Assembly (NCBI GenBank): GCA_903870275.1
Contig: CAIQCK010000103.1
Coordinates: forward strand, 3,819 to 67,818
DNA length: 64,000 nucleotides
From: an uncultured bacterium
Lineage (GTDB): Bacteria; Verrucomicrobiota; Verrucomicrobiia; CAIQCK01
Direction: 5' to 3'
Part shown: positions 33,255 to 64,000 of the stretch, piece by piece
Position numbering within the stretch: position 1 is the stretch's first letter
Layout of the letters: each line of letters opens with the position of its first letter
Program-made: the position numbers and the translations under genes
Notes under the pieces: model-generated
The model's database searches: none
Seen by the model: only the letters and a program-made list of their open reading frames with translations
What the model was told of the DNA's origin: nothing

Positions 33255-33266
33255 GCTTTCCTTTCG

Positions 33267-36200: not shown

Positions 36201-36287
36201 GATGCCTTCGCGCTTCAGTTCGCGCATCACCAGTTCGGCGTCGGCGGGGCGGTCTTCGAGGTTGAGTATCTGGAGTTCCTCGCTCAC
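33267..36287 (-). CDS. REC-(PAS)x~5-HisKA-HATPase sensor histidine kinase
   Basis: N-terminal REC ([13 protein letters not shown]...DYVLK). About five PAS-like modules. H-box [14 protein letters not shown]. ATPase [19 protein letters not shown]. The proposed start is the GTG at 36287, which overlaps the upstream stop (GTGA). The ATG at 36356 is the alternative. Confidence 0.9.
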
Positions 36288-36760
36288 GGCTTGGCGGTGG
36301 GAAAGCGCACTCCGGATGGACGTTCCGGCGGCTGGTTCAACAACAGCCAGTAACATCCCAGTTGCGCGACAGCTTCGGAAAAGTTGTCGAAGTTCACGGG
36401 CTTGACGATGTAGCTGTTCACGCCCAACTCGTAACTGCGTACGATGTCCTGCTCCTCGCGAGAGGAAGTGAGCACCACCACCGGGATGGTCTTCACGGAG
36501 TTGTCGGACTTGAGCTTGCGCAAGACATCCAGACCGTCCACCTTGGGCAGCTTCAGGTCCAACAGGATGATCTTGGGCCGGTTGCGCACCCGGCTGTTTC
36601 CGCCGCGAGGACCAAAGATAAACTCCAGCGCCTCTTCGCCGTCCTTGACCCAGACTAGTTTGTTGGTCAGGTTGCGTTTCTTGAGCGAGCGCATGGCCAG
36701 TTCGGCGTCGCGCGGATTGTCTTCAACCAACAGGATTTGAACTTCGCTATTTGTGCTCAT
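36284..36760 (-). CDS. single-domain CheY-like response regulator
   Basis: [13 protein letters not shown]...[20 protein letters not shown]...SYIVKP. Its ATG at 36760 overlaps the upstream stop (ATGA). Confidence 0.9.
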
Positions 36761-41385: not shown

Positions 41386-41706
41386 GCAATGTGCGCGATC
41401 CTCCCTGAACTGCTGGCGATTCTCCCCGAACGCCTCAGGACACAGCTTGGCCCCCGCCCGCTGATTTCATCCTCCCTCATCGTTGGATTGATAACACAAT
41501 CCACGAAGGAAAAACTAGTTATGGCTCGCCTTGACTTCATTGCCACCCACCAACGCACAACTTTGCCGTTGTGCATGCCCATTCAAAACGACAGCTACGA
41601 ATGTCACCTCGGTTCAGCATGACCTTCCGTGCGCAGGCTAATACTCTTAACACCCTTCTCCTGACAGCGCTAGTCAGGAACCCGCCGACAGGGTGTAGGA
41701 ATTATC

Positions 41707-42381
41707 CTACACGGCGGCACTGGGCGGGGTCTGCCCGGTCAACTGGTGACGGATGGCATAGTGGATCAGGTCTGTTGTTGTTCGTAGATCCATCTTCTTC
41801 AACAACCGCGCACGGTAGGTGCTGACCGTCTTCTCACTCAAGCCCAGTTCCGCCGCGATGGTTTTGCCGGAACCGCCGGCCACGATGCGGTGCAACACTT
41901 CGAATTCGCGGTTGGAGAGATTCTCGTGGGGCAACAGCGTGCGCGCGCCCAAACTGCTCGCCAGCCGTTCGGCGAACGAGGAACTGACGTAGGTGCCACC
42001 GGCCAGAATCCTCCGCACCGCGTCGGCAAGTTCCTCCGGCGCGCGCTCCTTGGTCAAATACCCCGCCGCGTGAAACTTCAACGAGCGCATGGCGAATTGG
42101 TCTTCGGGGTGCACGCTGAAAACCAACACCGGCAACTCCGGGCGTCTTTGTTTGACCTCGCGCAGCACGCTCAAGCCGTCACGATCCGGCAGCGAGATAT
42201 CCAGAATCAGCAAGTCCCACCGTTCCCTGCCGAGTTGCCGCAGCGTCCCGGCGGCGTCCGCCGCCTCGCCAAAGACCGCGCCCCGAAACTCTTCCTTCAG
42301 AATCTGTTTGATGCCAAGCCGCGTGGTGGCGTGGTCGTCGGTAATCAGGATGCGGAGCGGTTTGCGGGCAGGTTTTTTCAT
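41707..42381 (-). CDS. NarL/FixJ (LuxR-type HTH) response regulator
   Basis: REC domain LRILITDDHATTRLG...LILDISLPDRDG. HTH region LSNREFEVLHRIVAGGSGKTIAAELGLSEKTVSTYRARLLKKM. The ATG at 42381 overlaps the kinase stop (ATGA). Confidence 0.92.
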   Translation of the reverse strand: MKKPARKPLRILITDDHATTRLGIKQILKEEFRGAVFGEAADAAGTLRQLGRERWDLLILDISLPDRDGLSVLREVKQRRPELPVLVFSVHPEDQFAMRSLKFHAAGYLTKERAPEELADAVRRILAGGTYVSSSFAERLASSLGARTLLPHENLSNREFEVLHRIVAGGSGKTIAAELGLSEKTVSTYRARLLKKMDLRTTTDLIHYAIRHQLTGQTPPSAAV

Positions 42382-43649
42382 GAATGCTTCAAGGGAATCG
42401 CAACCCGGACGGTGGTGCCTTCGCCGGGCGCGCCGTGAATGATCACCTCGCCCCCAAACTCGCGCGCCCGCTCCCGCATGCCCAGCAGGCCCACGGCGCC
42501 GGCGTCGGCCATCTCCCGTGACGAGATGCCGCGGCCGTTGTCCGACACTTCCATCACCGCCCGACCGGCTACGGCCCGCAGCCGCGTGCGAACGCGCGTA
42601 GCTCCCGCATGGCGCGCGACGTTTGCCAGAATCTCCTGGAAGATGCGGAACATCGCCGTGGACCGGCCCGTGTCGAGCACCATTCCCTCCGCCGGCAAGT
42701 CCAACTCGCACTCGATGCCGCTACGCTCTTCAAACTGTTTCGCCCCCCACTCCATCGCCGCCACAAAACCCGACGTGTCCAGCACGGCGGGCCGCAACTC
42801 GGTGGAAATCCGCCGCGCCGTGTTGAGATCGCTTTCGACGCGCTTCATCATCGTTGCAATCCGCCGGCGCACGCCGGACTGGCCCGATTGCTTTTTCTCA
42901 TCCAACCGCCGGTCCAGCCATGCAAGGTCGAGTTTCAAATCCGTAAATGCATGGCCCATTTCGTCGTGAATTTCGCGGGCGATCCGGGCGCGCTCTTCCT
43001 CGCGAACGCTTCGCAGCCGGGCCGCCAGCGTCCGCAACTGTTCCCGCGAGGTCAGCAACCGTTGTTCGACCTGTTTGCGCTCGGTGATGTCGCGAATCGC
43101 GGCGACATGAATGCCGCGCCCCCGGCTTGTGAAATAGCTGCCCGCGATTTCCACCGGGAACACCGTGCCGTCCTTCTTGCGGTGCCAGCGGAGCGGAACA
43201 CTGGTTTCGCGCGCGGCGATGGCTTGCCCGGTTTTTTCCGGTTCCGCGGACATATCGGTCGGTTTCAACTTCAGAAATTCCTCACGACTGTAGCCGTAGA
43301 GCCGGGTCGCGGCGGCGTTGGCGTCCAAAACACGGCCCGTCTCGCCGTCAATCATGAGAATCGCATCGGACTCGATTTCGAACAGCCGGCGATGCCACTC
43401 TTCGGACTCGGCCAGTGCCTCGCCGTCCGGCTTGCGCCCGGCGATTTCGCGCTCGTCCGCCACCCATTTCTCCCGCTGCCGGCCCAATTCCACCGCCACC
43501 GCGTCCAATTCTCTCATCGCCTCGATCAAGTGCCGCTGCGTCGCGGTCTCTGCCGGTTGTTCATCCGGCGCGGCGTCCCACCTTTCCCGTAAAGCCGCCA
43601 GATGCCGCCGGGCTGCCTCGATGCGTTGGTTGATCAGTTTGTCACTCAC
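42378..43649 (-). CDS. PAS-HisKA_3-HATPase sensor histidine kinase (NarX/DegS class)
   Basis: PAS (WHRRLFEIESDAILMIDGETGRVLDAN...). HisKA_3 H-box EERARIAREIHDEMGHAFTDL. ATPase VSDNGRGI...GLLGMRERAREFGG. No TM segment is seen, so the protein is probably cytoplasmic. Confidence 0.9.
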   Translation of the reverse strand: MSDKLINQRIEAARRHLAALRERWDAAPDEQPAETATQRHLIEAMRELDAVAVELGRQREKWVADEREIAGRKPDGEALAESEEWHRRLFEIESDAILMIDGETGRVLDANAAATRLYGYSREEFLKLKPTDMSAEPEKTGQAIAARETSVPLRWHRKKDGTVFPVEIAGSYFTSRGRGIHVAAIRDITERKQVEQRLLTSREQLRTLAARLRSVREEERARIAREIHDEMGHAFTDLKLDLAWLDRRLDEKKQSGQSGVRRRIATMMKRVESDLNTARRISTELRPAVLDTSGFVAAMEWGAKQFEERSGIECELDLPAEGMVLDTGRSTAMFRIFQEILANVARHAGATRVRTRLRAVAGRAVMEVSDNGRGISSREMADAGAVGLLGMRERAREFGGEVIIHGAPGEGTTVRVAIPLKHS

Positions 43650-50747: not shown

Positions 50748-53222
50748 TCACTTCAACGACCAGGCTTCGAGTCGTCTGGCACCGGTATAGAGAATCTGCC
50801 CGTTCGGCGCAAACGCCAGGGCGATCCCCGGCCCGACCGCATTCACCCGGTTGAACTGAATCTCCACCAGCAACTCGCCGGTACCGATGCGAAACACTCC
50901 AATCCGGCCTTTGTCCGTATTCAAAGGCGCCCCGACGATGGCCAGCCAGCGGCCATCGGGTGAGAAGACCAGCGAGCACGCCCGGTCCGCCACCGGGTAG
51001 GCAAAGCCTTGCTGGAGCCTGCCCGTCGCCACATCCCACAGCCGAGTTCCGTCCCCTGCCGTGGCCGTGGCAAGGCAGCGGCCATCGGACGAAAAAGCCA
51101 GTCCGCTTACTTGGCCGGCATGTTCGTCAAACTGCCGCAATAGCTTGCCCGTGGCGGTGTCAAACAGTCTTATCGTTTTCGTTGAGACCGAGCCGCCGCC
51201 CGCGGCCAGCAGACTGCCGTCAGGCGACACCGCGACGACGCTCTTCACGCCGCTGTCGCCCTTGTGCTGCCACAAAGCGCGCCCGCTCCCGATATCAAAA
51301 CAGGCGATGTCGTTGAAACCGGCATAACCCAGGCGGAGCGCGGCGCGATCAAACGCAAAAGGACCAAGGCCAATGCCGCTGCTGGGCCTGCCTTTCAGTT
51401 CGATCTCCGAAACCAACTTCCGCTCGGCGACATCCCACTCACTTAACCACCCCTGTTGGTGAACTAGCACCACCTTATGTCCGGTATCGTGGAACGCCGT
51501 CCCCAGACACCAAGACCTGGGCTCGCGCGGAACCTGCCACACAGAGTTCCCCGATTTCGCCTCCCAGATTTCGACCGTTCCGTTGGTGAGCGTTGCCAAC
51601 AACTGGCCGTCGGGCGAGAGAATGAGATGCGACGGGTTGACGAAGAGCGGTGTGGCATAGACAGGTTCGGTGAGGATTTGCCTGGGCAGAGGCGACGGCT
51701 TGGGCGCTGGCTGTTCGGCCAGGTCATATTCATTGCGGAGCAAGTTCCGCCATTGGGCCAGCACCGTCTTCTGGTCGGCTGAACTCCGAGGCTGGGCGTC
51801 GTAGATACTCCGCACGCTGACGAGCGGTTCAGGCCGGCCGGCGTTCGAAATCTCCAGCATCTCTTTGAGTGTGTGCCAGTCGGTCAACTCGAACCGGGGA
51901 TGCTTCATTAACGCGATGAGCAATTCCCTCGTGTCGGGGCGCGCAGCCACCCGCACTTCCTGCAAGAATATTTCCGGCTGGTGGAAAGGATCTCTTGCCG
52001 TGACGAGTGCCTTATAGAACCAATCGGTGAGAAAATCCTTCTCCGCGGCGCCACAAACCCGCCACAAACCGCCGGTCAAATAGCCTGCGGCGCCGACATA
52101 ATCCCTTGTTTCGTGTTTCAGCGCCGTCCGCAGGATGTCGCCGGCGCGGGCGGGTTGCAGCGCCGCCGCGCCGATGGACCATGCCGGGTTGACGCCGTGA
52201 TAATCACGTTCCGCATCCTCGCAGGTGAGCAGCGCGCCGGCATCCTCCGGTCGCAGCAATTGGGCGGCATGACGAAGGATGAAATTGGCGATTCTCACAA
52301 AGTTAGGGTTCTTTTTGTTTTCCATCCGCAGGTCTGGATCGTCCGTCACCGGCTTGCGTTGGAGAAATCGCAACAGCGCTTCCGGCCCCAGTTCGCAGGC
52401 CGTGGCCAGCAGTTCCCGGTCTGACGCCAAACAATGTTCCGCCATGTATCCCTCGTTCCAACCTTCGGGGCATAAAACAAAAAGCCGTGTCCATGCGCGC
52501 TCCCTTGGAGGCAGTGCGTCCATCTCCGTCAAGACCCGCTTGATGTCCGATTGGTATTCCGGCTGAATCGGACTTGTTTCGCGCGTGGCGCGGTTCATTT
52601 TGACTGCGAACCAACCCGCCGAATACTGGCGGCCTTCATATTTCTTCCAGTATTTCTTGAAGATTTCCGCCGTCACCCGCGTCTCCCGTTCATCCGAAAC
52701 TCCCCAAAACTTGAGCATGGCTTGAGCCACGTGATCCACCGTCTGCGGACTCTCTAACTCGTCCACGGGACGCGGGCCTCCCATGCTGCTCATGAGTGCG
52801 CTGTTCATGAATTCGTGGAGGTCCGGGAACGTGGGAGCCTCATCGTCCACGAGCGATGCGATCAGCGGCAAATCCCGTCCATCTTCGCGCTCAAAAAGCG
52901 CGCCCAACGCCAGCGTTCGCATCTTCGGGTTGGGATGTTCGAGCAGTGCCGCCAAACTCTCGCGGTTGCCACTCAACGCGCGAAGCTCGCGCGCCAGACG
53001 ATCCTGCTGCGCCGCCAGCCGGTCATTATCCCACAGCCGCAACTGCCGGTTATAAATGAGGGTGGTTCGCGCGAAGTGACTGTAGGTCTGCGCCATCCGT
53101 TCCAACTGGATCTGAACCTGATTGCCGGTGGCGTCGGCCGCTGACAAGGCCGTAGCCGCCAGAAGCCATGCTGCAAACGTGCCGATGCGAGAGAGGGACC
53201 GGTGTTTCAGTTTGCGGAACAT
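50748..53222 (-). CDS. exported protein: N-terminal alpha-helical (HEAT/ARM-like) region plus C-terminal WD40 beta-propeller
   Basis: Signal peptide MFRKLKHRSLSRIGTFAAWLLAATALSA-AD. About 500 aa of helical sequence, followed by WD40-like blades (LSPDGQLLATLTNGTVEIWEA, FSSDGRCLATATAGDGTRLWDV, FSPDGRWLAIVG). Confidence 0.85.
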   Translation of the reverse strand: MFRKLKHRSLSRIGTFAAWLLAATALSAADATGNQVQIQLERMAQTYSHFARTTLIYNRQLRLWDNDRLAAQQDRLARELRALSGNRESLAALLEHPNPKMRTLALGALFEREDGRDLPLIASLVDDEAPTFPDLHEFMNSALMSSMGGPRPVDELESPQTVDHVAQAMLKFWGVSDERETRVTAEIFKKYWKKYEGRQYSAGWFAVKMNRATRETSPIQPEYQSDIKRVLTEMDALPPRERAWTRLFVLCPEGWNEGYMAEHCLASDRELLATACELGPEALLRFLQRKPVTDDPDLRMENKKNPNFVRIANFILRHAAQLLRPEDAGALLTCEDAERDYHGVNPAWSIGAAALQPARAGDILRTALKHETRDYVGAAGYLTGGLWRVCGAAEKDFLTDWFYKALVTARDPFHQPEIFLQEVRVAARPDTRELLIALMKHPRFELTDWHTLKEMLEISNAGRPEPLVSVRSIYDAQPRSSADQKTVLAQWRNLLRNEYDLAEQPAPKPSPLPRQILTEPVYATPLFVNPSHLILSPDGQLLATLTNGTVEIWEAKSGNSVWQVPREPRSWCLGTAFHDTGHKVVLVHQQGWLSEWDVAERKLVSEIELKGRPSSGIGLGPFAFDRAALRLGYAGFNDIACFDIGSGRALWQHKGDSGVKSVVAVSPDGSLLAAGGGSVSTKTIRLFDTATGKLLRQFDEHAGQVSGLAFSSDGRCLATATAGDGTRLWDVATGRLQQGFAYPVADRACSLVFSPDGRWLAIVGAPLNTDKGRIGVFRIGTGELLVEIQFNRVNAVGPGIALAFAPNGQILYTGARRLEAWSLK

Positions 53223-53230
53223 GGGATGCC

Positions 53231-55657
53231 TTAGTTGATCGTTCCTGCGCCCGCCGATGCGCGCCGCTGCCGGAGACGTGTCAATGATGACTTCGCCGTC
53301 TGGGTAAGCGGAGCGGCGGGGTCGCCGTGAGTCAGTGTTTCAATCACGGACTCCGCCGCAGCCACGCGGCTGTGTTCGAGCGCCATCACGGCCCGCGGAG
53401 GACGCAGGCGCGCGGATAACGGCAGCAATTTAATTTGCTCTGGGTCGGAGACCGTCGCCGGGCGCAGACGCGCAGCCATGAAAGCCACGGCCGCTTCACC
53501 ACCGGCTGCGAGTGTCCACGCGGCTTGATGCGCAGCCCAATGGTCATTGCTGCCAAGCACCTGCCACAAGGATTCCATTTCGGCCTGCGTCAGCGCGAGG
53601 GCGGGCAATCGGCCGTGTTGCAGCCGGCCGGTCATGTCCCAAACCAAGGCGTCAGCGTCGTCTGGCGTGACCAGCATGGTGTCGTCGGGGAAAAAAGCTA
53701 GCGCACGGCCATCTCTTCTGCCGGTTTTCCAGCGGTGGATTTCCTTCCTGGTCAGCACCTCCCAGAACGCAATCTCACCAAACCGGATCGTCGCCAGAAG
53801 GCAGCCATCAGAAGAAATCGCAGCGGCCGCCTCGTGACTTCCCTTCGCAAGGATTTCACCCGTCTTCGCGTCCCAAACACCGCTGCCCACCGCCAGCCAG
53901 TCGCCATCGGGCGAGACGGCAAGGCTTGGGAGCAAATGGTTGGCGCCCTTGAGCGCGCGGACATCTTCGCCCGTCGTCAGGTCTCGCAAGGCCAGATTCT
54001 GGTATTCACCCGCCCACCAAGCTTGGCTGCCGTCTGATGTGGGTTGCACTGAATAGACAGGTTTCTTGGGGCGCGCGGCTTTTTTTTCAGCGCCGGCACC
54101 GTTCGTTGGTTGCGCCGCAGGGATCGGTGCTTTCGGGTTGTCTATTGAACGCAGCAGCTTACCGGAGGCGGCTTCCCACACGCACATCCCATTCCGTGCA
54201 CCCGTCAACACCTCTTTGCCGTCCGCCAGAAACGCCACAGGTCCGTTGCCTTGGTGGTTTTTTCCAAATTGCGAAACCGGTTCTCCGGTCGCCGTATCAA
54301 AAAGAAAGAACGTGTCACCGCCATTGATCCAAGCTGTCGCGGCAAGGACGCGGCCATCGGGCGAAAACCTCAAATGTTGCACACCCCAATGAGACCCCAC
54401 GCCTTCGATCCGTTTCCGTTCTCGCGCTTCCGGCCAAGTCCACAGAATGATTCTGCCGTCCTGGCCGCCCGTGGCGATCGTCCTGCCATCCGGCGACACC
54501 GCGACCGCCTGTACCGGTTCGTCATGGCCGCAGCCGGGATTGATCTCCTGCCAGGTGTCCGTGTTCCAAAACCGAACACGATGCCCCTGTCCGGTGGCGA
54601 GGGTTTTCCCATCGGGCGAAAAGGCCAACGCTCCAACAGCTTCATGACTGGCTGGCAGACGATGAAGTTCTTGGCCGGTGACGGGGTCGTAGATTCTGAC
54701 CATTTCAGAACCCTTGGCGGCAAACCATCGGCCATCGGGCGAGAACACGCCCCCGCTGTAAGTGCCCGGCACATCATGCAACTCTTGTCCCGTGGCGGGA
54801 TCCCAGAATCGCAAAAACGCCCGATGGGCTCCGGGAATTGGCACCATGCAGGAACCCACCACTATTTTGCCGTTGGGTGAAAAGGCGAACCACGCATGAA
54901 AACCCGTCCCACCCGCCAGCCGAACGGGCGGACCTTCCGTATGGACGGGGCAAACCCACATCTCACCTTCGAAGGAACGCCCCCGGGAATAGGCCAAGGC
55001 GAGATACTGGTCGTCCGGAGAAAATTGCAGAGCCGAGACCAACGGAGAAAATTGCATTTTTTGAAACAACTTCTCATCCGATTTCCAACGCCGCAGTTCT
55101 TTCGCCTGTTCCACATCCCAGAAGATGATGTCGCCGCCATCGCCACTGGCTGCTTGAAGCCCGTCCGCGCTCAAGGCCACGGCGCGAGATATCTCCTTCG
55201 CACCGGTCAATTCGGAGCGGCGCTCCCCGGTGGCCGCATCGAAAACATGGATGATTGGAGGCCCGTTCTCCGCCAGCACCACCGTCCGCCAATCCCGCGA
55301 AATCGCGCCAGCCGTCACGAAGGATGTGGGCTTGAACACCTGCCGTTTTTTTCCTGTCGCCACGTCCCAAAGACCGACTTCGTTCCCTGCCTCCGTGAAC
55401 AACACCGATCCATCGGGCGAAAACGCCAAGCTGCGAATGTGTTCCTGGTGCATAAACCTGTGCGAGCCGAGGCGCGCCACTGTTTTTAGAGCGGCTTCAT
55501 CGCCACCCACGGGTTCCGCGCCAATCGCCACTGCCAGTGTTGGATCCCCTGCAATAGTCAACAACATCGAGAGAACGGCCCCCTCCAACATAGATCGAGT
55601 TTTTCCAAGCACTCTTCTCCAGATTCCCGATTTCCGCCAAACAAAAGCTGTTGTCAT
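53231..55657 (-). CDS. exported WD40-repeat protein (tandem beta-propellers) with a short helical C-terminus
   Basis: At least 12 blades (FSPDGSVLFTEAGNEVGLWDV, FSPDGKTLATGQGHRVRFWN, VSPDGRTIATGGQDGRIILW, and others). Signal-peptide-like N-terminus (start 55657 or 55591). Lies 8 bp upstream of the next gene. Confidence 0.88.
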   Translation of the reverse strand: MTTAFVWRKSGIWRRVLGKTRSMLEGAVLSMLLTIAGDPTLAVAIGAEPVGGDEAALKTVARLGSHRFMHQEHIRSLAFSPDGSVLFTEAGNEVGLWDVATGKKRQVFKPTSFVTAGAISRDWRTVVLAENGPPIIHVFDAATGERRSELTGAKEISRAVALSADGLQAASGDGGDIIFWDVEQAKELRRWKSDEKLFQKMQFSPLVSALQFSPDDQYLALAYSRGRSFEGEMWVCPVHTEGPPVRLAGGTGFHAWFAFSPNGKIVVGSCMVPIPGAHRAFLRFWDPATGQELHDVPGTYSGGVFSPDGRWFAAKGSEMVRIYDPVTGQELHRLPASHEAVGALAFSPDGKTLATGQGHRVRFWNTDTWQEINPGCGHDEPVQAVAVSPDGRTIATGGQDGRIILWTWPEARERKRIEGVGSHWGVQHLRFSPDGRVLAATAWINGGDTFFLFDTATGEPVSQFGKNHQGNGPVAFLADGKEVLTGARNGMCVWEAASGKLLRSIDNPKAPIPAAQPTNGAGAEKKAARPKKPVYSVQPTSDGSQAWWAGEYQNLALRDLTTGEDVRALKGANHLLPSLAVSPDGDWLAVGSGVWDAKTGEILAKGSHEAAAAISSDGCLLATIRFGEIAFWEVLTRKEIHRWKTGRRDGRALAFFPDDTMLVTPDDADALVWDMTGRLQHGRLPALALTQAEMESLWQVLGSNDHWAAHQAAWTLAAGGEAAVAFMAARLRPATVSDPEQIKLLPLSARLRPPRAVMALEHSRVAAAESVIETLTHGDPAAPLTQTAKSSLTRLRQRRASAGAGTIN

Positions 55658-55719
55658 GGGTCACCTCGATACGAGCATCACCGCTGCGGTTATCAATGCG
55701 AGTCGGTTCATAAGTGCCT

Positions 55720-57192
55720 TTATGGCGTCGGTTCGGGCGGATCTGGTTTCTTGGTCTTCGGCGCCGGCGACACGGGGGCGGACCCGACAGCAGGCTTGCG
55801 CAGTTTGTTCAGCGCCTCGGCGGCAAAGTGGCGCACGTCCCGATCTGTATCAATCAAGCAGGCGGTCAGTGGGTTGATGGCTCGCGTGTCCCCCAGCCTG
55901 CCCAGCGCCCAAGCGGCTTGGCAGCGGACCTGCTGATTCTTATCGTTCAAGCAAGCGATCAGCAGATCAACGGCTCGCTTGTCACCCAGCTTGCCCAACG
56001 CCCAAGCAGCTAGCCAGCGGACCTGCTGATTCTGGTCTTTCAAGCAAATGATCAGCGGCTCGACGGCTCGCTTGTCCCCCAGCTTGCCTAGGGACTCGGC
56101 AGAGTTACTGCGCACCGACCACGCTTCATCTTTCAGGCAGGCGATCAACGGTTCAACGGCCCGCACATCCCCCAAATCGCCCAACGCCGCGGCGGCAGGC
56201 CAAGACAGACGATTGTCCCGGTCTTGGTCCGTCAAGCAGGCGATCAGCGGCTCCAAAGCCCGCTTGTCCCCCACGTGGCCCAGCGCATGGGCGGCTATTC
56301 TGCGCACGACCCAATCCTGGTCTTTCAAGCAGGCGATCAACGGCTCGACGGCCCGTTCGTTCCCCGGTTTGCCCAGCGCCATGGCGGCATGCCAGCGCAT
56401 GACCTTGTCCTCATCCTTCAAACAGGCGATCAGATGCTCAACGGCTCGCACATCCTCCAGTTTGCCCAGGACCGAGATGGCGCCCCAGCGCATGTTCTCA
56501 TCTGGACCTTTCGAGCAGACAATGAGCGGCTCGACGACTGGCTTGCCCAGCTTGCCCAGCGCCTTGGCGGCGCCTGATCTCACACTCCGATCTTGATCTT
56601 TCAAACAGCCGATCAGCGGCTCGACGGCTGGTTTGCCCAACTTGCCCAGCGCCTCGGCGGTATGGTAGACTACATACAGTTCCTGATTCTTCATCAACTT
56701 CAAGCAGGCGATCAGCGGCTCGACGGCCCGCGCGTCTCCGAGTTTGCCCAGTGCCTCGGCGGCGACCCACCGCAGATTCTGATTCTGATCCTTCAAGCAA
56801 GCGATCAGAGGCTCAACGGCTTGTGCGTCTCCGAGTTTGCCCAACGCCTCGCCGGCGGCCCTGAACACCCTGTATTCTTGATCCTTCAGGCAGGCGATCA
56901 ACGGCTCAACTGCCCGCTTGTCCCCCAGTTTGCCCAGCGCCACAGCCGCACCCGCGCGCACACGCAAATCCGAATCCTTCAAGCAGGCGATCAACGGCCC
57001 GATGGCCCGCTTGTCGCCCAGGTCGCCCAGCGCATAAACCGCACTCTCGCGTCCAAAAAAGCCAAGCGGATCATTCAACTCGTTGATTCGTTCTTGAACG
57101 GTGTCGGTCGTTCCCACCGCCCCGGCCGCCGCAAGACTCATGCAAAGCGTTATTGAACGAATCAACGCCACGACAAAAGGCTTCACGTTCAT
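55720..57192 (-). CDS. exported HEAT-repeat (PBS-lyase HEAT-like) array protein
   Basis: Signal peptide MNVKPFVVALIRSITLCMSLAAAGA. About 13-14 consecutive units of ~31 aa, D-x-x-x-x-V-R-x-x-A-A-x-A-L-G-K-L-G-D-x-R-A-V-E-P-L-I-A-C-L-K. Confidence 0.9.
   Translation of the reverse strand: MNVKPFVVALIRSITLCMSLAAAGAVGTTDTVQERINELNDPLGFFGRESAVYALGDLGDKRAIGPLIACLKDSDLRVRAGAAVALGKLGDKRAVEPLIACLKDQEYRVFRAAGEALGKLGDAQAVEPLIACLKDQNQNLRWVAAEALGKLGDARAVEPLIACLKLMKNQELYVVYHTAEALGKLGKPAVEPLIGCLKDQDRSVRSGAAKALGKLGKPVVEPLIVCSKGPDENMRWGAISVLGKLEDVRAVEHLIACLKDEDKVMRWHAAMALGKPGNERAVEPLIACLKDQDWVVRRIAAHALGHVGDKRALEPLIACLTDQDRDNRLSWPAAAALGDLGDVRAVEPLIACLKDEAWSVRSNSAESLGKLGDKRAVEPLIICLKDQNQQVRWLAAWALGKLGDKRAVDLLIACLNDKNQQVRCQAAWALGRLGDTRAINPLTACLIDTDRDVRHFAAEALNKLRKPAVGSAPVSPAPKTKKPDPPEPTP
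55782..57060 (-). repeat. ~93-bp tandem coding repeats (HEAT units)
   Basis: Strings such as caagcaggcgatcagcggctcgacggc and ttgcccagcgcc recur with a period of about 93 bp across the gene. Confidence 0.8.
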
Positions 57193-57369
57193 ATGGCTGC
57201 CTTCATTTTATAACGAACGGTTGCCGATCCGCTTCACCGGTGCAGCCGCCGTTGTTGAGTCCAAGCATTGTGTGTCCGGAGCGCCCGCATGAACTTGTTG
57301 TCGTGTATGCGGCCATCTGTGTTCATCCGGGAATCTGTCAATGATCAGGAGTTGTGACCCCACGCGAAG

Positions 57370-60300
57370 TCATTTGCGGAGGTTGGCGCGCAGCTCGGCG
57401 ATTCGGTCCTGGTAATATGCCTTCTCGACGCTGGAGAGGTTGGCCTCCAACTGGTCAATCTCAGCGAGTGACGGAAGGTGAGTTTCTGTATATGCCGGCC
57501 GGAAGAGGAACAGGTTCAATACTTGTTCCCTCAGATCATCGAAGTATTGTCCGTTGCGCTTCACCGTTCGCGGTGGCAGCAACATGACCATGCGTATCAC
57601 TTCGTTTCGAGCGTCCGTCTCGTCGCTTTCAATCAAGTATCTGCTCGCGGAATAACGAATCTTTGGATGATCGGCCGCAAGCTGTTTGATCGCAAAGACT
57701 TTGATCTCCTGCCCCTTGAGTCCATGAACCGCTTCATAGATGGCATCGCCGAAACAATTGTTTTTTCCGGGCTGCCCGCGAAGTAAAAGAGCCAGTTCGA
57801 GTTTGGCAAGGCCGTAGCCTGGATCGTGTTTGATAAGATACCGCAGCAAGGCCGCCTGAATCGTGCAGGCCCACCCGCCGTTGGAAGATGAATACAGGGC
57901 CTTTACCTCGTCGAGCAAGGCTGGTGAGCCATAACGCCCGATCACGAAGCTCATCTTGAAAAGGTCGCAAGACCGCTGACCACGCCACGAAAGAGCCGCA
58001 ACCCGAAAGGCCGCATCCAGTTCCGGTACAGGTTGCTCCGGAAGCGATGCCAGTCCTTTGAAAGCAAATCGCGGGTAGCCGCTGCGAATGTCCTCCAGCA
58101 AAAGTTTGCGCGCAGCGTCTGAACCCAGTTCGATCAGACGCTGCATAATGTCGTCGGCAATCGTGTGGCCGGCGTCTTGTTCGGGTTTGTCCGGCAGACG
58201 CAACATCGCTTCAAGCACGGGCTGGAATTGCTGGCAGCGCACGCGTGACCACATCTCATCGCCGAGCACGGCACGTTGTTCGTATTCCTGGAGTCCCGGG
58301 AATGCCTGTGCCAAAGCAAGGCGATCCTTCATCGAAGCACCCTCGCCAACGTTAAGATGATACCGAAGCGCCACACGGCTCTTGAGCGGGCGAAACTGCA
58401 TGGGTATGGACGAAACATCGTAACCGGGATCGCCGGACGGTGAACGTTGCGGCTCCTCGATGCTCACCGGTTTGGTTACCCGATTCTCCAGGCTGCGTTC
58501 GCCGCCTGTGCCGTCATAAGCGATGGTCAATGACCAGGTGTAGTTGGTTCCGTATTTGTCCACCCATTGGTCTGCAAACAGATACATCTCATGATTGTCG
58601 AAGTCTTTGAAGCGGTCAAAAGTATAGCCTCTGAAGCGGCCAAAAGTTTCGCAACTGTTCCAAGCCGGTATGTTTCTTTCGGCCTCGGCGCGCGTCATGC
58701 CCGCTTTGATCGAAGCCGCTTGTGCCATCCAAAGCTTCTTGTCCTCCGGCGAACGCATGACTTTGTTGACCTTGACCGGTGCCAGCACTCTTTCCTGATT
58801 GTTTGGAATCCCGAACTTCTCTCTTTTGGAAACGTCGTAAGTGACTATCACTCGCCAGTCTGCCGAGACGAAGTACTGTTCGGTCATAGAATAGAAGTCG
58901 CCCCACCCGCTCCCGCAAAAGTCATAACTGTTTGAAGCCGGAGGAATCCATCGCGGCAAGATCTTCTCCACCTCCGCCCGCGTCATGCCCACCTTCACCG
59001 TCGCGGCACGGGCTTGCCAATCTGTTAGAGTGTCTTTGTCCTCAACGCGCACTGCCGCGTCATCAGCGTTCATTAACACCACCCGCAAACCGCGGTTGCC
59101 AATGCGATTGGGAGGCGCGCCGCCGTTGCCGCGGCAACTCGACGTGAGAAAGGCGGGATCGCGCATAAACGCCCCGCCTCGCAACACATGGCCTGTGCCG
59201 GAAACCGGGCCTTGAGGGTCTACCGGGACATTGGACAGATGCGGCTCATACCAATCCCTGCACCACTCCCAAACATTGCCGTGCATGTCATAGAGGCCCC
59301 ACGCGTTCGGCTCCTTCAACCCGACCGGGTGGGGCCTGTTTCCCGAGTTGGATTCATACCAGGCGTACATGCCAAGGCGGGTTTCGTCGTCGCCGAAGGA
59401 GTACTTGGTGGTGCTGCCGGCGCGGCACGTGTATTCCCACTGCGCTTCGGTCGGCAGCAGCGCCTTCATGCCGGGCACTTTCTCGCTCAGCGTGGCCAGA
59501 AACGGCTGGCAATCGTCCCATCGGACATTCTCCACCGGATTCCTCGGGTCTTTGGTGGGGTGCGGATTGCCGCCCAAGACGGCCAGCCATTGCTCCCGTG
59601 TTACTTCGTATTTCCCCATGTAAAACGGCTGGGTGAGAACGACCCGGTGCTTTTCGTTTCCATCGCCCATCATGAACGAGCCGCCGGGGATGAGGACAAA
59701 CGCCATTGTCACACCGCCGCCCAGGTTCACGGTGAGGGTTCTTTGCGCTTTTCGTATATCGGGCTCGCGGCTGGCTTTCGCAATGTCCGGGTGCCGCAGG
59801 ATACGGCCCTTGCCGGTGACCTCGTTCACGTCAATCGAATGAAAGACCGTTTCGGCGCGATCACTGACCAGACCCAATGCTCGCTCGTTCGGAAGTTTCC
59901 ACAATCTCTGGCGGCTGGCGTCGCTGAAGTCGGTTTTCCATTCGTTCATCAATCGGCCATCAAGAAAGGCGCGTACGCCGTTCTTCCGCACTTGCAGGAC
60001 CGAAGAATAAACCCGGTTGTTCGCCAGAGAGTGAGGCGTCCACACCGTCAGGGGGTTGTTGTTCGCCGTCCTGCCCTTCACCATTTCGAAGCCGAAACAA
60101 CTGTTGCACCAATGCCCCATCACCCAAAGAGCGGGTCTTTCGTCCTGCGAGAACAATTGCCCAACCGGCTCTTCTCCTTCGGTGCGGGTAAAGACTATGC
60201 GAAAATCGTATTCCTCCGGCGGCTCGTAGGGAATTTGCAGCCGCGCTGCCTGCACATCATCCGCACAAACCAGAGCCTCATCTCGCATCCTCCACCTTCC

Positions 60301-63300
60301 CAGAACCGCGTCCTTGATTGGATCAATAAGCGGCAACAATTGGACTGATCCCGGCCACGCCGCAGCGCTAGTCAAGTGAGCGTCTGCGCTGCCTGGCTCG
60401 AAGATCGAACCGTCATCCACCAAACCGAGCGAGCGGACGACGGTGTCACTGCGCCCAAAAACTCCGACAATCGGCTTGCCCATCCCGGCAAGTTTGATGG
60501 TATCGCCAACGCTGTTCTTGCCGCCAAGCCAGCCGCTCTTGTATCCATCATGAGTATCCAGACCACCGCCGGCGCCTTGGATCTTCATGAATTCGATCTC
60601 AAAGCCGTTAAGAAACACAATCCCCATCCCATTGAGTCCGCCAACCGCGTAGCCGGGCTTGGCCTCCACCGTCTGCGTGGGTTCCTGCACCTCTCCCTGC
60701 ACGGCGCCTAGAAACTTTTTCATGCCCGCGCGGTAGATCGGTTGCAAGGATTTCACCACCCTTTGGTTCTTCTCCTCCCCGAAACTGACCTTGAAGCCGA
60801 CCAGGAACAATTGCGGTTGCGGTATTTCCAAAAAGGCAGCGCCGATGCCGCTGCCGAGTGAAGCGGGCAGTTTGAGCATCGTAGATGTTGGTTTTTGCGC
60901 AAATGCCGGCGCGGCCATCTCAGCGTCGTCAAGCCCCGATGTGAGCCGCTTTTGCAATTGCGTTTCAGCAGTCTCGCGACCGGCTTCCGCGATTCCCAAA
61001 TGCGGCACAACCCTGCCTTTGCTGGTGATTTCTAACAGCTGGATCTCTTGAAAAACGACACGGCTTAGGAAACTCCCCACGCCGAGGCAATTGTGGTCTG
61101 GAATGTCCCAATGGGGATGAAGAGTGCCATCCTTGAAGTCTGTGTTCCAAATCGAAATCAGCTCGTTATTCAGGTAAGCCTTCACGCCGTTCTTCCGAAC
61201 TCGCAATAGGGAAGTGTAAATCTGGCCGTTTTTAAGGAAGTCCTGTCGCTTGACAGTGGTTGCATTATGTTGTGAATCCTGGCCGTTGATGTGTTCGAAG
61301 CCAAAAACTTTGTTGTGATCTCCAGCCATTTGCCAGAGGGCGGCGCGTCCAACGTGAGTCACATATTGGGCAATGCAATCGTTGCCGGAGGTGCGGATAA
61401 AAACGATGCGGAAGTCGTATTCTTCAGGCGGCTCGTAAGGAATCATTAGCCTTTCGTGTTTGCCGCTCCCGGAAACGAGACTGTCTCCTTGGAATGTCCA
61501 CGCTCCCTTTACGGCATCCTTCACAGGATCAATCAGCGGCATGAGATTGACGGCGCGCGACCATGCGGCGTCGTTTTCAGGCAGAGTAGCCAGTGCCTCT
61601 AACGTAAAAGTCTGCTTGCCGCTGCCTTGATTTGAGACAACGGTTTTTGACGACAGCCAACCACACAACTTTTTATCGGCGGAGAGTTCGGGAAGCGAAC
61701 TGCCAGAAGGCTCGGAGATTGTGTGAAACGTGACGGTTTCGTAAGGTTTCTTTGCATAAGACACATTCAGGGGTGCATGAGAAGCGGGGAAAACTCGCCA
61801 AGTTTCGTGGGGTGGCGTGCCGAGCGTGTCGGCTACGTAAGCAACTGTATCTGTCGGCACTTCCGATTCAAATGACTCGCCGGATATGAACGTGCATCCC
61901 ATGAAATTGGAACCCTCTGCGCACCACATAACAGTAGGTGGCACCGCGCAGTCAACGAACTGACAGGAACTAATGGTATTCCACTTGCTGCGAAGTAATT
62001 TCATGTGGTCGAATGGCTTGTCCTTCAAGCGCCTGTGCGCGATTTCCGGAAATCGCATTGACACGAATGCACAATGGGTAAACTGGATCCCGAAATCCGT
62101 TCCTTTGAGTGACGGGAACGCAGATTTGTAGAACAGACAGGAATCCGCCACCCACTTGGAGGAATAATAGCTAAACCACGCACCCCGCTTTTCAAACTGG
62201 CATCGGTCAAAGACGGCCCATTTCGCCTTCAGACCGTGGGGGTTAAGATTCTGTCTGATCGTAACGCCTCGTAGTACCGCCGGTTTCTCCGGCGTGCCTT
62301 CGATCGCAAACTCCCCGTCCTTGTTCAGATAAATGTCACCGCCTCGAATTTCCACTCCCGGCGCCACTTTGATCTCTATGGCGTGCCGGATATTTTCCTT
62401 TACTGCGTAAGTGCCGTTCAACACATACGGCCTCGACGTGTCTGTGAACGCGTAGTCCTTCTCGATGTTCAGGGGAAGGTAAGACTCATTTTGCTTATCA
62501 GTTCGCCACGGCGACCACCACAACAGCCCCGCGAGCGCGAAGGCGACAGCCGCGAAGGCTGCGAACACCAACGGCGCCCGCTGGCGCGGAGGAGTTGCTG
62601 CCGCGCCCGCCGCACCGCCCGCGCTCTGGGTCGGTTGCGATGCCGTGATGGTTTCCACCCGCGTCTTGACCTCACTGATTTGCTGATAGCGGCGTTCGGG
62701 TTCCTTTTCCAGCGCGCGCAACACAACTTCGTCCAGCCGCACATCAATTTGCACTTTTCTCGATGGTGGTTCGATGGGTTTGCCGGGCAGTTCGCCGGTG
62801 AGCAGTTCGTAGAGCACCACGCCGAGCGAGTAGATGTCCGCGCGATGATCGGTAACGCGATGCGCCTTCTGTTCCGGGGCCATGTAGGCTGGCGTACCGC
62901 CGGGCTCGGATCGTGATGTGGGCACTCCTGCGCGCGCGTCATTGCTTTCACAAACAGAAATGTCCGTGCTACGGCCGAGCATTTTCGCGATGCCGAAGTC
63001 GGCAATCTTGACGCGACCGTCCTTGTCCAACAGCAGGTTCTCCGGCTTGACGTCGCGATGCACGATACCGTGCTCATGGGCGTATTGCAGCGCCTCGCAC
63101 ACGGGAGGGACAATGGCCAGCGCCTGTTCCGGCGTGAACCGCTCCGCCTTCATCGCCTGGCGCAGGTTCACGCCGTCCACGAACTCCATCAGCAGGTAGT
63201 AGAAGCCGCCGGCCTGGCCGAAGTCATAAACCGTGACGATGTTCGCATGATTCAGCATCGCGAGCGCCCGCGCTTCGTGAGCGAACCGCTCGGCAAATTG

Positions 63301-63609
63301 CGGATCGCCTACGCGTTCGGGGGCGAGCAGTTTGAGTGCGACGAGGCGGTCGAGGTTCTTCTGTCGCGCCTTATAGACCACGCCCATGCCGCCACGGCCA
63401 AGGTATTCGAGAATTTCCAGTTGCGGGAAGTGCGGCGCCAGCTCCAGTGGGGACAGGGCCTTGCGGGACGCGACAGGTTCCGCATCCGGCTTCGTCGGCG
63501 CCATCGCCTCCGCCATCAGACAGCGGGGGCAAAGACCCGCCGTGGACGCCACCGGCAAAACTGCGCCGCACTTCGGGCACGCATTTGTCGCTGAAGAGGG
63601 TTCGCTCAT
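57370..63609 (-). CDS. giant transmembrane Ser/Thr protein kinase with a lectin-like/FGE-sulfatase ectodomain (2079 aa)
   Basis: Start at MSEPSS (63609). Zn-ribbon CPKCG...CPRC. Kinase motifs GRGGMGVVYKA, ALK, HRDVKPEN, DFG and APE. One TM (PLVFAAFAAVAFALAGLLWW). FGE-sulfatase block (MGKYEVTREQW...AQWEYTCRAG...GLYDMHGNVWEWCRDWY...VLRGGAF). The 114 upstream codons in the ORF track overlap the sigma gene region and are not credible. Confidence 0.92.
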   Translation of the reverse strand: MSEPSSATNACPKCGAVLPVASTAGLCPRCLMAEAMAPTKPDAEPVASRKALSPLELAPHFPQLEILEYLGRGGMGVVYKARQKNLDRLVALKLLAPERVGDPQFAERFAHEARALAMLNHANIVTVYDFGQAGGFYYLLMEFVDGVNLRQAMKAERFTPEQALAIVPPVCEALQYAHEHGIVHRDVKPENLLLDKDGRVKIADFGIAKMLGRSTDISVCESNDARAGVPTSRSEPGGTPAYMAPEQKAHRVTDHRADIYSLGVVLYELLTGELPGKPIEPPSRKVQIDVRLDEVVLRALEKEPERRYQQISEVKTRVETITASQPTQSAGGAAGAAATPPRQRAPLVFAAFAAVAFALAGLLWWSPWRTDKQNESYLPLNIEKDYAFTDTSRPYVLNGTYAVKENIRHAIEIKVAPGVEIRGGDIYLNKDGEFAIEGTPEKPAVLRGVTIRQNLNPHGLKAKWAVFDRCQFEKRGAWFSYYSSKWVADSCLFYKSAFPSLKGTDFGIQFTHCAFVSMRFPEIAHRRLKDKPFDHMKLLRSKWNTISSCQFVDCAVPPTVMWCAEGSNFMGCTFISGESFESEVPTDTVAYVADTLGTPPHETWRVFPASHAPLNVSYAKKPYETVTFHTISEPSGSSLPELSADKKLCGWLSSKTVVSNQGSGKQTFTLEALATLPENDAAWSRAVNLMPLIDPVKDAVKGAWTFQGDSLVSGSGKHERLMIPYEPPEEYDFRIVFIRTSGNDCIAQYVTHVGRAALWQMAGDHNKVFGFEHINGQDSQHNATTVKRQDFLKNGQIYTSLLRVRKNGVKAYLNNELISIWNTDFKDGTLHPHWDIPDHNCLGVGSFLSRVVFQEIQLLEITSKGRVVPHLGIAEAGRETAETQLQKRLTSGLDDAEMAAPAFAQKPTSTMLKLPASLGSGIGAAFLEIPQPQLFLVGFKVSFGEEKNQRVVKSLQPIYRAGMKKFLGAVQGEVQEPTQTVEAKPGYAVGGLNGMGIVFLNGFEIEFMKIQGAGGGLDTHDGYKSGWLGGKNSVGDTIKLAGMGKPIVGVFGRSDTVVRSLGLVDDGSIFEPGSADAHLTSAAAWPGSVQLLPLIDPIKDAVLGRWRMRDEALVCADDVQAARLQIPYEPPEEYDFRIVFTRTEGEEPVGQLFSQDERPALWVMGHWCNSCFGFEMVKGRTANNNPLTVWTPHSLANNRVYSSVLQVRKNGVRAFLDGRLMNEWKTDFSDASRQRLWKLPNERALGLVSDRAETVFHSIDVNEVTGKGRILRHPDIAKASREPDIRKAQRTLTVNLGGGVTMAFVLIPGGSFMMGDGNEKHRVVLTQPFYMGKYEVTREQWLAVLGGNPHPTKDPRNPVENVRWDDCQPFLATLSEKVPGMKALLPTEAQWEYTCRAGSTTKYSFGDDETRLGMYAWYESNSGNRPHPVGLKEPNAWGLYDMHGNVWEWCRDWYEPHLSNVPVDPQGPVSGTGHVLRGGAFMRDPAFLTSSCRGNGGAPPNRIGNRGLRVVLMNADDAAVRVEDKDTLTDWQARAATVKVGMTRAEVEKILPRWIPPASNSYDFCGSGWGDFYSMTEQYFVSADWRVIVTYDVSKREKFGIPNNQERVLAPVKVNKVMRSPEDKKLWMAQAASIKAGMTRAEAERNIPAWNSCETFGRFRGYTFDRFKDFDNHEMYLFADQWVDKYGTNYTWSLTIAYDGTGGERSLENRVTKPVSIEEPQRSPSGDPGYDVSSIPMQFRPLKSRVALRYHLNVGEGASMKDRLALAQAFPGLQEYEQRAVLGDEMWSRVRCQQFQPVLEAMLRLPDKPEQDAGHTIADDIMQRLIELGSDAARKLLLEDIRSGYPRFAFKGLASLPEQPVPELDAAFRVAALSWRGQRSCDLFKMSFVIGRYGSPALLDEVKALYSSSNGGWACTIQAALLRYLIKHDPGYGLAKLELALLLRGQPGKNNCFGDAIYEAVHGLKGQEIKVFAIKQLAADHPKIRYSASRYLIESDETDARNEVIRMVMLLPPRTVKRNGQYFDDLREQVLNLFLFRPAYTETHLPSLAEIDQLEANLSSVEKAYYQDRIAELRANLRK

Positions 63610-63653
63610 GTCACTGTCCTGACGTGGAAACAGGGGTTGGTTACAAAGTTTTT

Positions 63654-64000
63654 TTAGCTTCCCAAGGCGGCAAACAAGACGCCCATCTCGGTCTCGACCT
63701 GACCGGGATCTCGCAGCGTGCCGGCAACCTCCGACCTCACCAACTGGCGGAACCGTTTCTTCATGCGATGCACCGCGACCTTCAGCGCGACAGGGTTCAG
63801 TCCGCAGCCAGCCGCCATCGCCGTCTGATCGCCATGTGCCGCATCGCCGGTAAGCCACGGCTTGATCTGCTCGAAGAAAGCCCCGCGCCCTTCCGATGCG
63901 CACTCCCGCTGCAACGCCTCCAAAGCGCGAGCCAGCACGGTTAGTGCCCATTGCCGGTCAAAGGCCGCGTCGGGAGTCAACGCCTTCGGGTCTGCCACCG
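63654..64000 (-). CDS. ECF-type RNA polymerase sigma factor, C-terminal part (5' end lies outside the window)
   Basis: Region-4-like HTH (GLNPVALKVAVHRMKKRFRQLV), preceded by FDRQWALTVLARALEAL. The reading frame is still open at the window edge. It lies 44 bp upstream of the kinase gene. Confidence 0.8.
   Translation of the reverse strand, partial: VADPKALTPDAAFDRQWALTVLARALEALQRECASEGRGAFFEQIKPWLTGDAAHGDQTAMAAGCGLNPVALKVAVHRMKKRFRQLVRSEVAGTLRDPGQVETEMGVLFAALGS

Follow-up and report, generated by a model that had tools for sequence, protein, structure and literature searches.

We analysed a 64,000-nucleotide stretch (the window) of contig CAIQCK010000103.1 from an uncultured bacterium of the Verrucomicrobiota, with a focus on five consecutive genes at its far end that encode an extracytoplasmic function (ECF)-like sigma factor, a membrane Ser/Thr kinase, a HEAT-repeat protein and two WD40 proteins (WD1 and WD2). 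The functional unit of this locus is probably a two-gene module that consists of a divergent ECF-type sigma factor and a single-pass Hanks-type Ser/Thr kinase. As judged from sequence comparison, the sigma factor and the cytoplasmic half of the kinase are conserved across the Verrucomicrobiota, the kinase ectodomain is a lineage-specific mosaic, and the HEAT, WD40 and helical-WD40 genes are lineage-specific neighbours that nothing ties to the module. The locus belongs to a known class, the kinase-coupled ECF sigma factors, which constitute an accepted and barely characterised route of bacterial environmental sensing. To our knowledge, only two kinase-ECF pairs have been studied biochemically, both of them from Proteobacteria. 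What this locus adds is incremental: twin promoters, a kinase message almost without a leader, an upstream open reading frame (ORF) kept in related loci, a sigma region 2.2 free of phospho-acceptors, and a lectin-like sensor built from cassettes.

All five ORFs lie on the minus strand, separated by gaps of 44, 177, 62 and 8 bp; these gaps, the strand and the coordinates (Table 1) reproduce those of the original prediction. Contigs from four samples of the same species encode an identical kinase in the same gene arrangement, and one of them (L001) reaches 1,362 bp upstream of the kinase gene, past the point at which the window cuts through the sigma gene. The complete sigma gene occupies L001:557-1318 and encodes 253 amino acids (aa). 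A gene-caller start that yields 222 aa is placed too late, since more than 100 homologues of 250-253 aa align from residue 1. Upstream of the sigma gene, L001 carries only the promoter region, a tRNA-Leu(UAA) and a C-terminal remnant of a tyrosine integrase (L001:3-463). No anti-sigma gene is present in this part of L001, and the kinase has no Pfam match to an anti-sigma domain. The expectation that the locus lacks an anti-sigma gene thus holds beyond the window edge.

Comparison across genomes carries the two-gene reading. We scanned one genome per species (GTDB) with an alignment of the sigma factor and obtained 80 related loci, nearly all labelled Verrucomicrobiota (Limisphaerales/Pedosphaera, Chthoniobacterales, Verrucomicrobiales), in which the sigma identity ranges from 52% to 82% and which include Chthoniobacter flavus and Prosthecobacter; the window proteins were searched against all ORFs of these loci. 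In 76 loci the sequence continues for 300 bp or more beyond the sigma gene; 75 of these have a Ser/Thr kinase gene directly behind it, usually after a gap of ~45 bp, and the pair occurs in differing genomic contexts. All-against-all clustering of the flanking ORFs revealed no other family in more than 11 loci, shadow ORFs over the pair aside. Given this near-constant neighbour and the lack of any other, sigma factor and kinase form a self-contained pair, as had been proposed for an ECF sigma factor coupled to a membrane Ser/Thr kinase without an anti-sigma factor.

Several loci depart from the simple arrangement. The sole locus without a kinase after the sigma gene (L064:9959-10738) lacks it despite ~10 kb of downstream sequence, and a degenerate promoter-like sequence persists there past the sigma stop codon. 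Some genomes carry tandem sigma-kinase pairs (L030:4773-15805; L066:6129-13189) in which the second sigma factor is a distant paralogue; that of L066 has the canonical DAEDLTQEFF. In other genomes two tandem kinases follow one sigma gene (L040, L041), and in L041 the second kinase gene is also preceded by the promoter motif described below.

Both genes of the pair carry the same type of promoter. When the 250 bp preceding the sigma genes were aligned, GTAACCTTTCCCnTCCAACACGTCAGG emerged in exact register in 44 loci, with close variants in others. This ECF-type motif, GTAACC-N16-CGTC, usually ends 31 nt before the ATG and lies at 501-528 of L001, beyond the window; it has the AAC-type -35 and CGT-type -10 elements typical of autoregulation by ECF sigma factors. 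A weight matrix built from the motif of these 44 loci has a single match in the 64-kb window (63644..63617, 18.5 bits), and five shuffles gave no match of 6 bits or more. The match falls into the gap between the sigma and kinase genes, where 40 related loci have a site of at least 10 bits at the equivalent position and where the sequence aligns across loci as ...GGTAACCAAACC...CACGTCAGGACAC.GG(C/T)ATGAGCGA. Only 11 nt separate the end of its CGTC from the kinase ATG, so that the kinase transcript would be near-leaderless. Because the kinase gene carries its own copy of the sigma promoter, the active sigma factor would be expected to boost both genes. Up to 10 kb from the pair, the motif marks almost nothing else in the 80 genomes, which suggests that the real targets lie elsewhere in these genomes.

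Downstream of the sigma promoter we also observed a 9-codon upstream ORF (L001:538-567) with counterparts at the equivalent position in about 30 related loci. It starts 13 nt after the -10 element, in the +1 frame, and ends 8 nt past the sigma start codon. The encoded peptide reads MMCPGCDGC in L001 and MICPDSDDR, MACPPTDEH or MISPAPDDH elsewhere. This small ORF may act in translational coupling or regulate sigma synthesis.

The cytoplasmic half of the kinase is equally well preserved. Its VALK, HRD, DFG and APE motifs are intact, and K93, HRD184-186, DFG204-206 and PE245-246 are invariant in 36 orthologues, as is characteristic of Hanks-type kinases. N-terminal to the catalytic domain lies the motif CPxCG-x12-LCPRC, whose cysteines C11, C14, C27 and C30 are each at least 90% conserved in the same set. 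It is present in most loci compared and absent from L055, L068, L071, L076 and L077, and no feature of the sigma factor clearly tracks its presence or absence. Only one 19-residue Kyte-Doolittle window exceeds 1.6 in the whole protein, and this single hydrophobic stretch places ~1,710 residues outside the cytoplasm. Of the topology originally predicted, the kinase domain, the one transmembrane helix, the long extracytoplasmic part and the paired CxxC elements are borne out, and the zinc ribbon is a putative assignment from the motif.

Sigma factors that are encoded together with a Ser/Thr kinase and without an anti-sigma factor are established in the groups ECF43, ECF59-62, ECF217, ECF267 and ECF283 (PMC7826278). 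The window sigma factor agrees with ECF59, ECF60, ECF61, ECF62, ECF217 and ECF283 in being of PVC (Planctomycetota-Verrucomicrobiota-Chlamydiota) type with a conserved neighbouring kinase and no anti-sigma factor (PMC7826278, PMC8103513). In the Planctomycetes-type kinase-linked members a Thr or Ser near DAED has been proposed as the acceptor, whereas the window sigma factor has an alanine (A73). ECF43 pairs, too, join the sigma gene to a single-pass membrane Ser/Thr kinase without an anti-sigma factor, have ectodomains that vary among members, and encode a sigma factor of the sigma2 plus sigma4 ECF type (PMC8999054, PMC13147305). In EcfP of Vibrio parahaemolyticus, the partner of PknT, the DAED of region 2.2 is replaced by STTA, and phosphorylation of the second Thr restores the charge needed for beta' binding (PMC8999054). 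EcfK of Xanthomonas citri, paired with PknS, uses linker sites in addition (PMC13147305).

The window sigma factor does not fit the ECF43 switch. With the register of region 2.2 set against distant family members that keep DAxDLTQEFF, the clade reads AARE(M/L)AH(E/D), that is A68-A69-R70-E71-(L/M)-A73-H74-(D/E)75: of the DxxD contact motif, the first Asp is gone and an Arg stands at position 3. ECF43 members replace DAED with uncharged residues that include a conserved Thr (QTTA or STTA), whereas here the segment is AARE with an acidic position 4; a TTRWT motif near the N-terminus and a C-terminal tail of ~20 aa are further differences. Since the defining ECF43 signature fails, the ECF43 switch cannot be transferred to this protein, and the original reference to ECF43-type pairs survives as an analogy only. 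As aa 68-75 contain no Ser or Thr, any phospho-acceptor would have to lie elsewhere than at the ECF43 position. Ser or Thr is kept in at least 88% of 83 family sequences at T24, T25, T28, S37, S98, S128, S/T147, T159, T189 and T233. Among these, S128, in a part of the linker modelled as disordered, and S/T147, at the linker end, resemble the EcfK linker sites and are candidate acceptors on the basis of their conservation, as are T24, T25 and T28 of the invariant N-terminal TTRWT.

By analogy with EcfP/PknT and EcfK/PknS, we propose that an envelope or environmental ligand, probably a glycan, would bind and activate the kinase. The kinase would then phosphorylate the sigma factor and allow it to engage core RNA polymerase. 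The active sigma factor could in turn raise transcription of both genes, resulting in positive feedback.

Several points weigh against this proposal, most of which concern the sigma protein itself. Neither Pfam nor NCBIfam has a family that matches the 114-aa fragment in the window, and the full 253-aa protein passes none of the curated sigma models (Pfam Sigma70_r2, Sigma70_r4_2 and Sigma70_ECF; TIGR02937): PF07638 scores E 0.0085 at 16.4 bits (cut-off 21.1), TIGR02937 E 1.3e-4 at 21.7 bits (cut-off 42.9) and PF04542 10.1 bits (cut-off 24). A sequence search of the PDB with the sigma profile returned no sigma factor, only chance matches to a ubiquitin-conjugating enzyme, and hhalign of the sigma alignment against E. 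coli RpoE gave no usable alignment. Its identity as a sigma factor rests on fold, relatives and promoter and not on curated sequence thresholds. The protein might resemble a sigma factor without directing transcription and serve as an adaptor or kinase substrate, as the low scores, the missing first Asp and the Arg at position 3 would allow; we consider this very improbable. It has the sigma2 plus sigma4 architecture without sigma3, both domains adopt the ECF sigma fold, region 4 retains the helix-turn-helix-like segment ALKVAVHR(L/M)K(R/K)RFR, and a classical ECF -35/-10 motif precedes both its own gene and the kinase gene, as expected of an autoregulating sigma factor. The family is also large: an exhaustive profile search found 16,746 cluster representatives at E<=0.001 (2,826 at E<=1e-30), typical members of which carry DA(Q/E)DLTQEFF. 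Of ten distant members sampled, all share the N-terminal motif TT(R/H/Q)W(S/T), nine have R(G)(R/K)FR(S/A)(Y/F/W)L (P0350 reads RGRLRSYLL) and nine have KRGG, and several distant relatives found with the family profile exceed the Pfam cut-offs for Sigma70_r2 and Sigma70_ECF. Activation poses the other difficulty. Position 4 of the DxxD motif is acidic (E or D) in 82 of the 83 family sequences, so the sigma factor may not be intrinsically inactive, and we infer its phosphorylation solely from gene adjacency and precedent. A related and rather unlikely reading is that the clade comprises kinase-coupled ECF sigma factors with a switch unlike the ECF43 paradigm. Control would then act through TTRWT or through S128 and S/T147 of the linker, and the CxxC..CxxC motif might provide the kinase with a docking or anti-sigma-like element of its own. 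The twin sigma-dependent promoters, the near-leaderless kinase mRNA and the 9-codon upstream ORF would determine expression, and the putatively exported HEAT and WD40 proteins might have been recruited as co-receptors in this lineage only.

The remaining points against a two-gene unit concern the three genes behind the kinase gene, which lie on the same strand with short gaps and no predicted terminator; a scan of 50.4-64 kb for sigma-70 promoters and terminators gave no site in the 177-bp gap and did not outperform shuffled sequences. The three genes may be co-transcribed, and read-through from the kinase promoter may reach them. In the original prediction all five genes formed one conserved surface-sensing system in which the exported scaffolds were fixed partners of the kinase ectodomain. 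Shared strand, the gaps of 177, 62 and 8 bp, signal-like N-termini and the identical arrangement in the four same-species samples are in its favour. The cross-genome co-occurrence test refuted this fixed entourage. Fifty loci have 2 kb or more of sequence beyond the kinase gene (42 of them 4 kb or more); a HEAT homologue or the N-terminal helical domain of WD2 is found there in none of them, and a generic, unrelated WD40 gene in one (L074), ~2.4 kb beyond the kinase; no HEAT homologue occurs in the 80 sigma loci. A Pfam scan of the longest ORF that begins no more than 1.5 kb past the kinase gene, taken from each of 49 loci, gave 69 families, with HATPase_c the commonest (four loci) followed by FGE-sulfatase (three); HEAT and WD repeats (PF00400) were absent among the 25 families listed, and 26 of these 49 ORFs lie on the opposite strand. 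The closest relatives have other genes in this place, namely an opposite-strand FGE-sulfatase gene followed by carbamoyltransferase, dehydrogenase and thioredoxin-like genes in L004 (sigma identity 82%), and hypothetical genes with a collagen-like/CBM5_12 gene in L005 (79%). In addition, the HEAT and WD40 genes have no sigma-type promoter as judged by the weight matrix (and, for HEAT and WD1, by loose regular expressions). Orthologues of WD2, finally, reside elsewhere: about 50 full-length ones (36-57% identity) exist, and in the surroundings of six of those (L084, L086, L088, L093 and two in L094) genes for a sigma factor, a kinase, HEAT or WD1 are absent. The five-gene system is thus highly improbable.

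A recent recruitment restricted to this species, in which the three putatively exported proteins would be co-transcribed and work with the lineage-unique ectodomain region aa 1520-2079, is a somewhat better alternative and still doubtful. It can draw on the shared strand and short gaps, and on the coincidence of new neighbours with a new ectodomain, given that the C-terminal region of the kinase has no counterpart in the 80 related kinases. It can also draw on the sole other place in which two of the three downstream genes stand together, a further point against the two-gene unit: a 1.6-kb metagenome contig (L089:11-1584) carries a WD1-like gene (56%) and, ~540 bp later, a WD2-like start (84% over 25 aa). 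Because the WD1-WD2 order is kept, the two may belong together in a narrow clade; when metagenomes were scanned with WD1, three loci only were returned, two of which are generic WD40 proteins. On the other side, the kinase C-terminus is unrelated in sequence to the three proteins, no promoter link was found, and 177 bp is long for an operon junction. Moreover, adjacency by chance is plausible, since exported repeat proteins (Ank, WD40, concanavalin-A-like, beta-helix) shift from one variable slot to another in related genomes. We therefore favour the sigma-kinase pair as the functional unit.

The HEAT protein comprises ~11 PBS-lyase-type HEAT repeats, and both downstream WD proteins have WD40 repeats (Pfam). 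Of the signal-peptide-like N-termini earlier ascribed to all three proteins, those of HEAT and the 824-aa WD2 clearly resemble Sec signal peptides; that of WD1 is ambiguous, as this protein has two possible start codons and a hydrophobic stretch at aa 27-46. The ~500-aa N-terminal domain of WD2 (51663-53222, aa 1-520) belongs to no Pfam family and also occurs as stand-alone proteins of 450-680 aa in Verrucomicrobiota and Planctomycetota (Thermoguttaceae, Schlesneria). L094 (positions 1-22541) holds a 22-kb array with 23 gene calls, of which a single one departs from the common strand and hardly any match Pfam; two WD2 paralogues and a serpin are among them. The small genes that precede WD2 orthologues were considered as a conserved partner and dismissed, being mutually unrelated and unrelated to the window proteins.

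In contrast to its cytoplasmic half, the ectodomain of the kinase varies strongly among lineages. Complete kinases across the loci have a median length of 1006 aa (maximum 2169), and the closest orthologue (L004) matches the window kinase solely over aa 1-379, at 79% identity, and over aa 676-1271, at 65%; it lacks aa 380-675 and anything past aa ~1300. Of the 36 kinases scanned (35 orthologues and the window kinase), six have an FGE-sulfatase domain, three DUF6263, three PDZ and two TPR, and peptidase S41 and thioredoxin-like domains occur in single kinases each. None of the kinases from the 80 related loci contains a homologue of the C-terminal region of the window kinase; a search for similarity between this region and HEAT, WD1 or WD2 found none. 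The designation of this ectodomain as lectin-rich is justified for two concanavalin-A-like modules of ~190 aa, of which copy 2 is confidently modelled (predicted local distance difference test, pLDDT, 94-98) and copy 1, modelled at low confidence, takes its fold from copy 2; the jacalin-like stretch is a weak hint only. Foldseek matched copy 2 to PDB entry 3nmb, a putative sugar hydrolase (E 3.8e-6), and to CBM66 (E 4e-6), with 3-keto-glycoside eliminase/hydratases among the top matches, a TM-score of up to 0.72 and 221 matches at E<=0.001. The likeness to CBM66 and 3-keto-glycoside eliminase/hydratase-type proteins is one of fold only: unlike these, the kinase modules have no Pfam sequence match and form part of a kinase sensor. 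The 190-aa module is also present in 39 other PVC proteins, together with Lon-like, LRR, FHA, trypsin-like, DUF1501 or kinase domains. PVC membrane Ser/Thr kinases that combine a cytoplasmic kinase domain, one transmembrane helix and a large periplasmic repeat or FGE-sulfatase region, with accessory domains scattered over lineages, have been described before (PMC11032199). The window kinase resembles these and differs in carrying concanavalin-A-like modules; WD40 and HEAT repeats, of which WD40 is found alongside TPR and FGE-sulfatase in the periplasmic part of such kinases, are encoded here by separate, unfused downstream genes.

Other Verrucomicrobia encode stand-alone proteins of 400-540 aa that are 78-82% identical to kinase aa 899-1271 (59794-60912) and thereby closer to it than the orthologous L004 kinase (65%). 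The G+C content at third codon positions (GC3) is 0.74-0.76 in the sigma gene and the cytoplasmic kinase half and 0.60-0.65 in most ectodomain modules. Since modules recur elsewhere, GC3 drops in the ectodomain and stand-alone proteins exceed the identity of the orthologue, our comparison indicates that the sensor half was assembled by cassette exchange, module by module between lineages. The AT-richness once attributed to the entire cluster lies mostly in these kinase modules, as HEAT, WD1 and WD2 (G+C 0.60-0.61) are close to the window mean of 0.613. Two of the stand-alone lectin-like genes (L095:7983-9245 and L096:2641-4260) adjoin a convergent TauE gene, and the closest WD2 orthologue (L092, 76% identity) likewise has a convergent TauE gene behind it. 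This recurrent neighbour suggests that genes for exported repeat proteins and lectin-like proteins share a variable slot.

Table 1. Features of the sigma-kinase locus and its surroundings in the window.
Feature	Position	Strand	Remarks
Sigma gene, 3' part	63654..64000	minus	last 114 codons and stop; protein of 253 aa, ECF-like
Kinase ECF-type promoter GTAACCAACCCCTGTTTCCACGTCAGGA	63617..63644	minus	-35 GTAACC, -10 CGTC; within the 44-bp gap
Ser/Thr kinase, membrane Hanks-type, 2079 aa	57370..63609	minus	Pfam Pkinase 2.6e-50
Kinase: CxxC-x12-CxxC motif, N-terminal cytoplasmic, aa 11-30	63520..63579	minus	zinc-ribbon-like (putative)
Kinase: protein kinase catalytic domain, aa 65-285	62755..63417	minus	Pfam Pkinase 2.6e-50
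Kinase: single transmembrane helix, aa 344-367	62509..62580	minus	only 19-residue Kyte-Doolittle window >1.6
Kinase: ectodomain aa 380-675	61585..62472	minus	no Pfam match; missing in closest orthologue L004; GC3 0.60
Kinase: concanavalin-A-like module copy 1, aa 680-868	61006..61572	minus	44% protein identity to copy 2
Kinase: possible jacalin-like beta-prism, aa ~919-1065	60415..60855	minus	Pfam Jacalin E 0.04, sub-threshold; low model confidence
Kinase: concanavalin-A-like module copy 2, aa 1085-1272	59794..60357	minus	pLDDT 94-98
Kinase: FGE-sulfatase (sulfatase-modifying factor 1-like), aa 1303-1511	59077..59703	minus	Pfam PF03781 4.9e-39
Kinase: GMTRAE motif, twice, possibly BamE-like, aa 1520-1760	58330..59052	minus	Pfam BamE E 0.011, sub-threshold (weak)
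Kinase: C-terminal ectodomain region, aa 1760-2079	57373..58332	minus	no Pfam match; lineage-specific
HEAT-repeat protein, 490 aa	55720..57192	minus	Pfam HEAT_2 4.7e-98, HEAT_PBS 1.4e-85
WD40 protein (WD1), 808 aa, or 786 aa with alternative start	53231..55657	minus	Pfam WD40 2.4e-35
Helical-WD40 protein (WD2), 824 aa	50748..53222	minus	signal peptide-like, ~500-aa Pfam-less N-terminal domain, WD40 propeller
PATR-repeat protein, 2241 aa	43866-50591		convergent with the 824-aa WD2 gene
PAS/HisKA_3 kinase	42378-43649		
LuxR-type response regulator	41707-42711		
Large PAS/GAF histidine kinases, two	33267-36356, 36757-41385		
Hybrid kinase	32106-33254		

A tRNA upstream of the sigma gene was found in this genome alone among 75 related loci checked; an Rfam scan detected tRNA-Leu only. 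Four independent assemblies terminate inside the tyrosine-integrase remnant. We considered a genomic-island origin on account of the tRNA-Leu and the integrase fragment and rejected it, as the integrase is located 5' of the tRNA, away from the cluster; the typical GC3 of the sigma gene and cytoplasmic kinase half weakens it further. Elsewhere in the window, a dense block of two-component signalling genes extends from 32106 to 43649. An 801-aa ankyrin-repeat protein (27200-29605) has the lowest G+C of the window genes measured (0.527; GC3 0.59) and may be another recently acquired repeat protein.

Collectively, our data describe a widespread PVC family in which the sigma factor, the cytoplasmic kinase half and two promoters remain near-constant while sensor modules exchange freely. 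The family thus provides a convenient natural series for studying how different ectodomains feed one output. Moreover, since the ECF43 phospho-site is missing from it, this family could reveal a second route of activation for kinase-coupled sigma factors.

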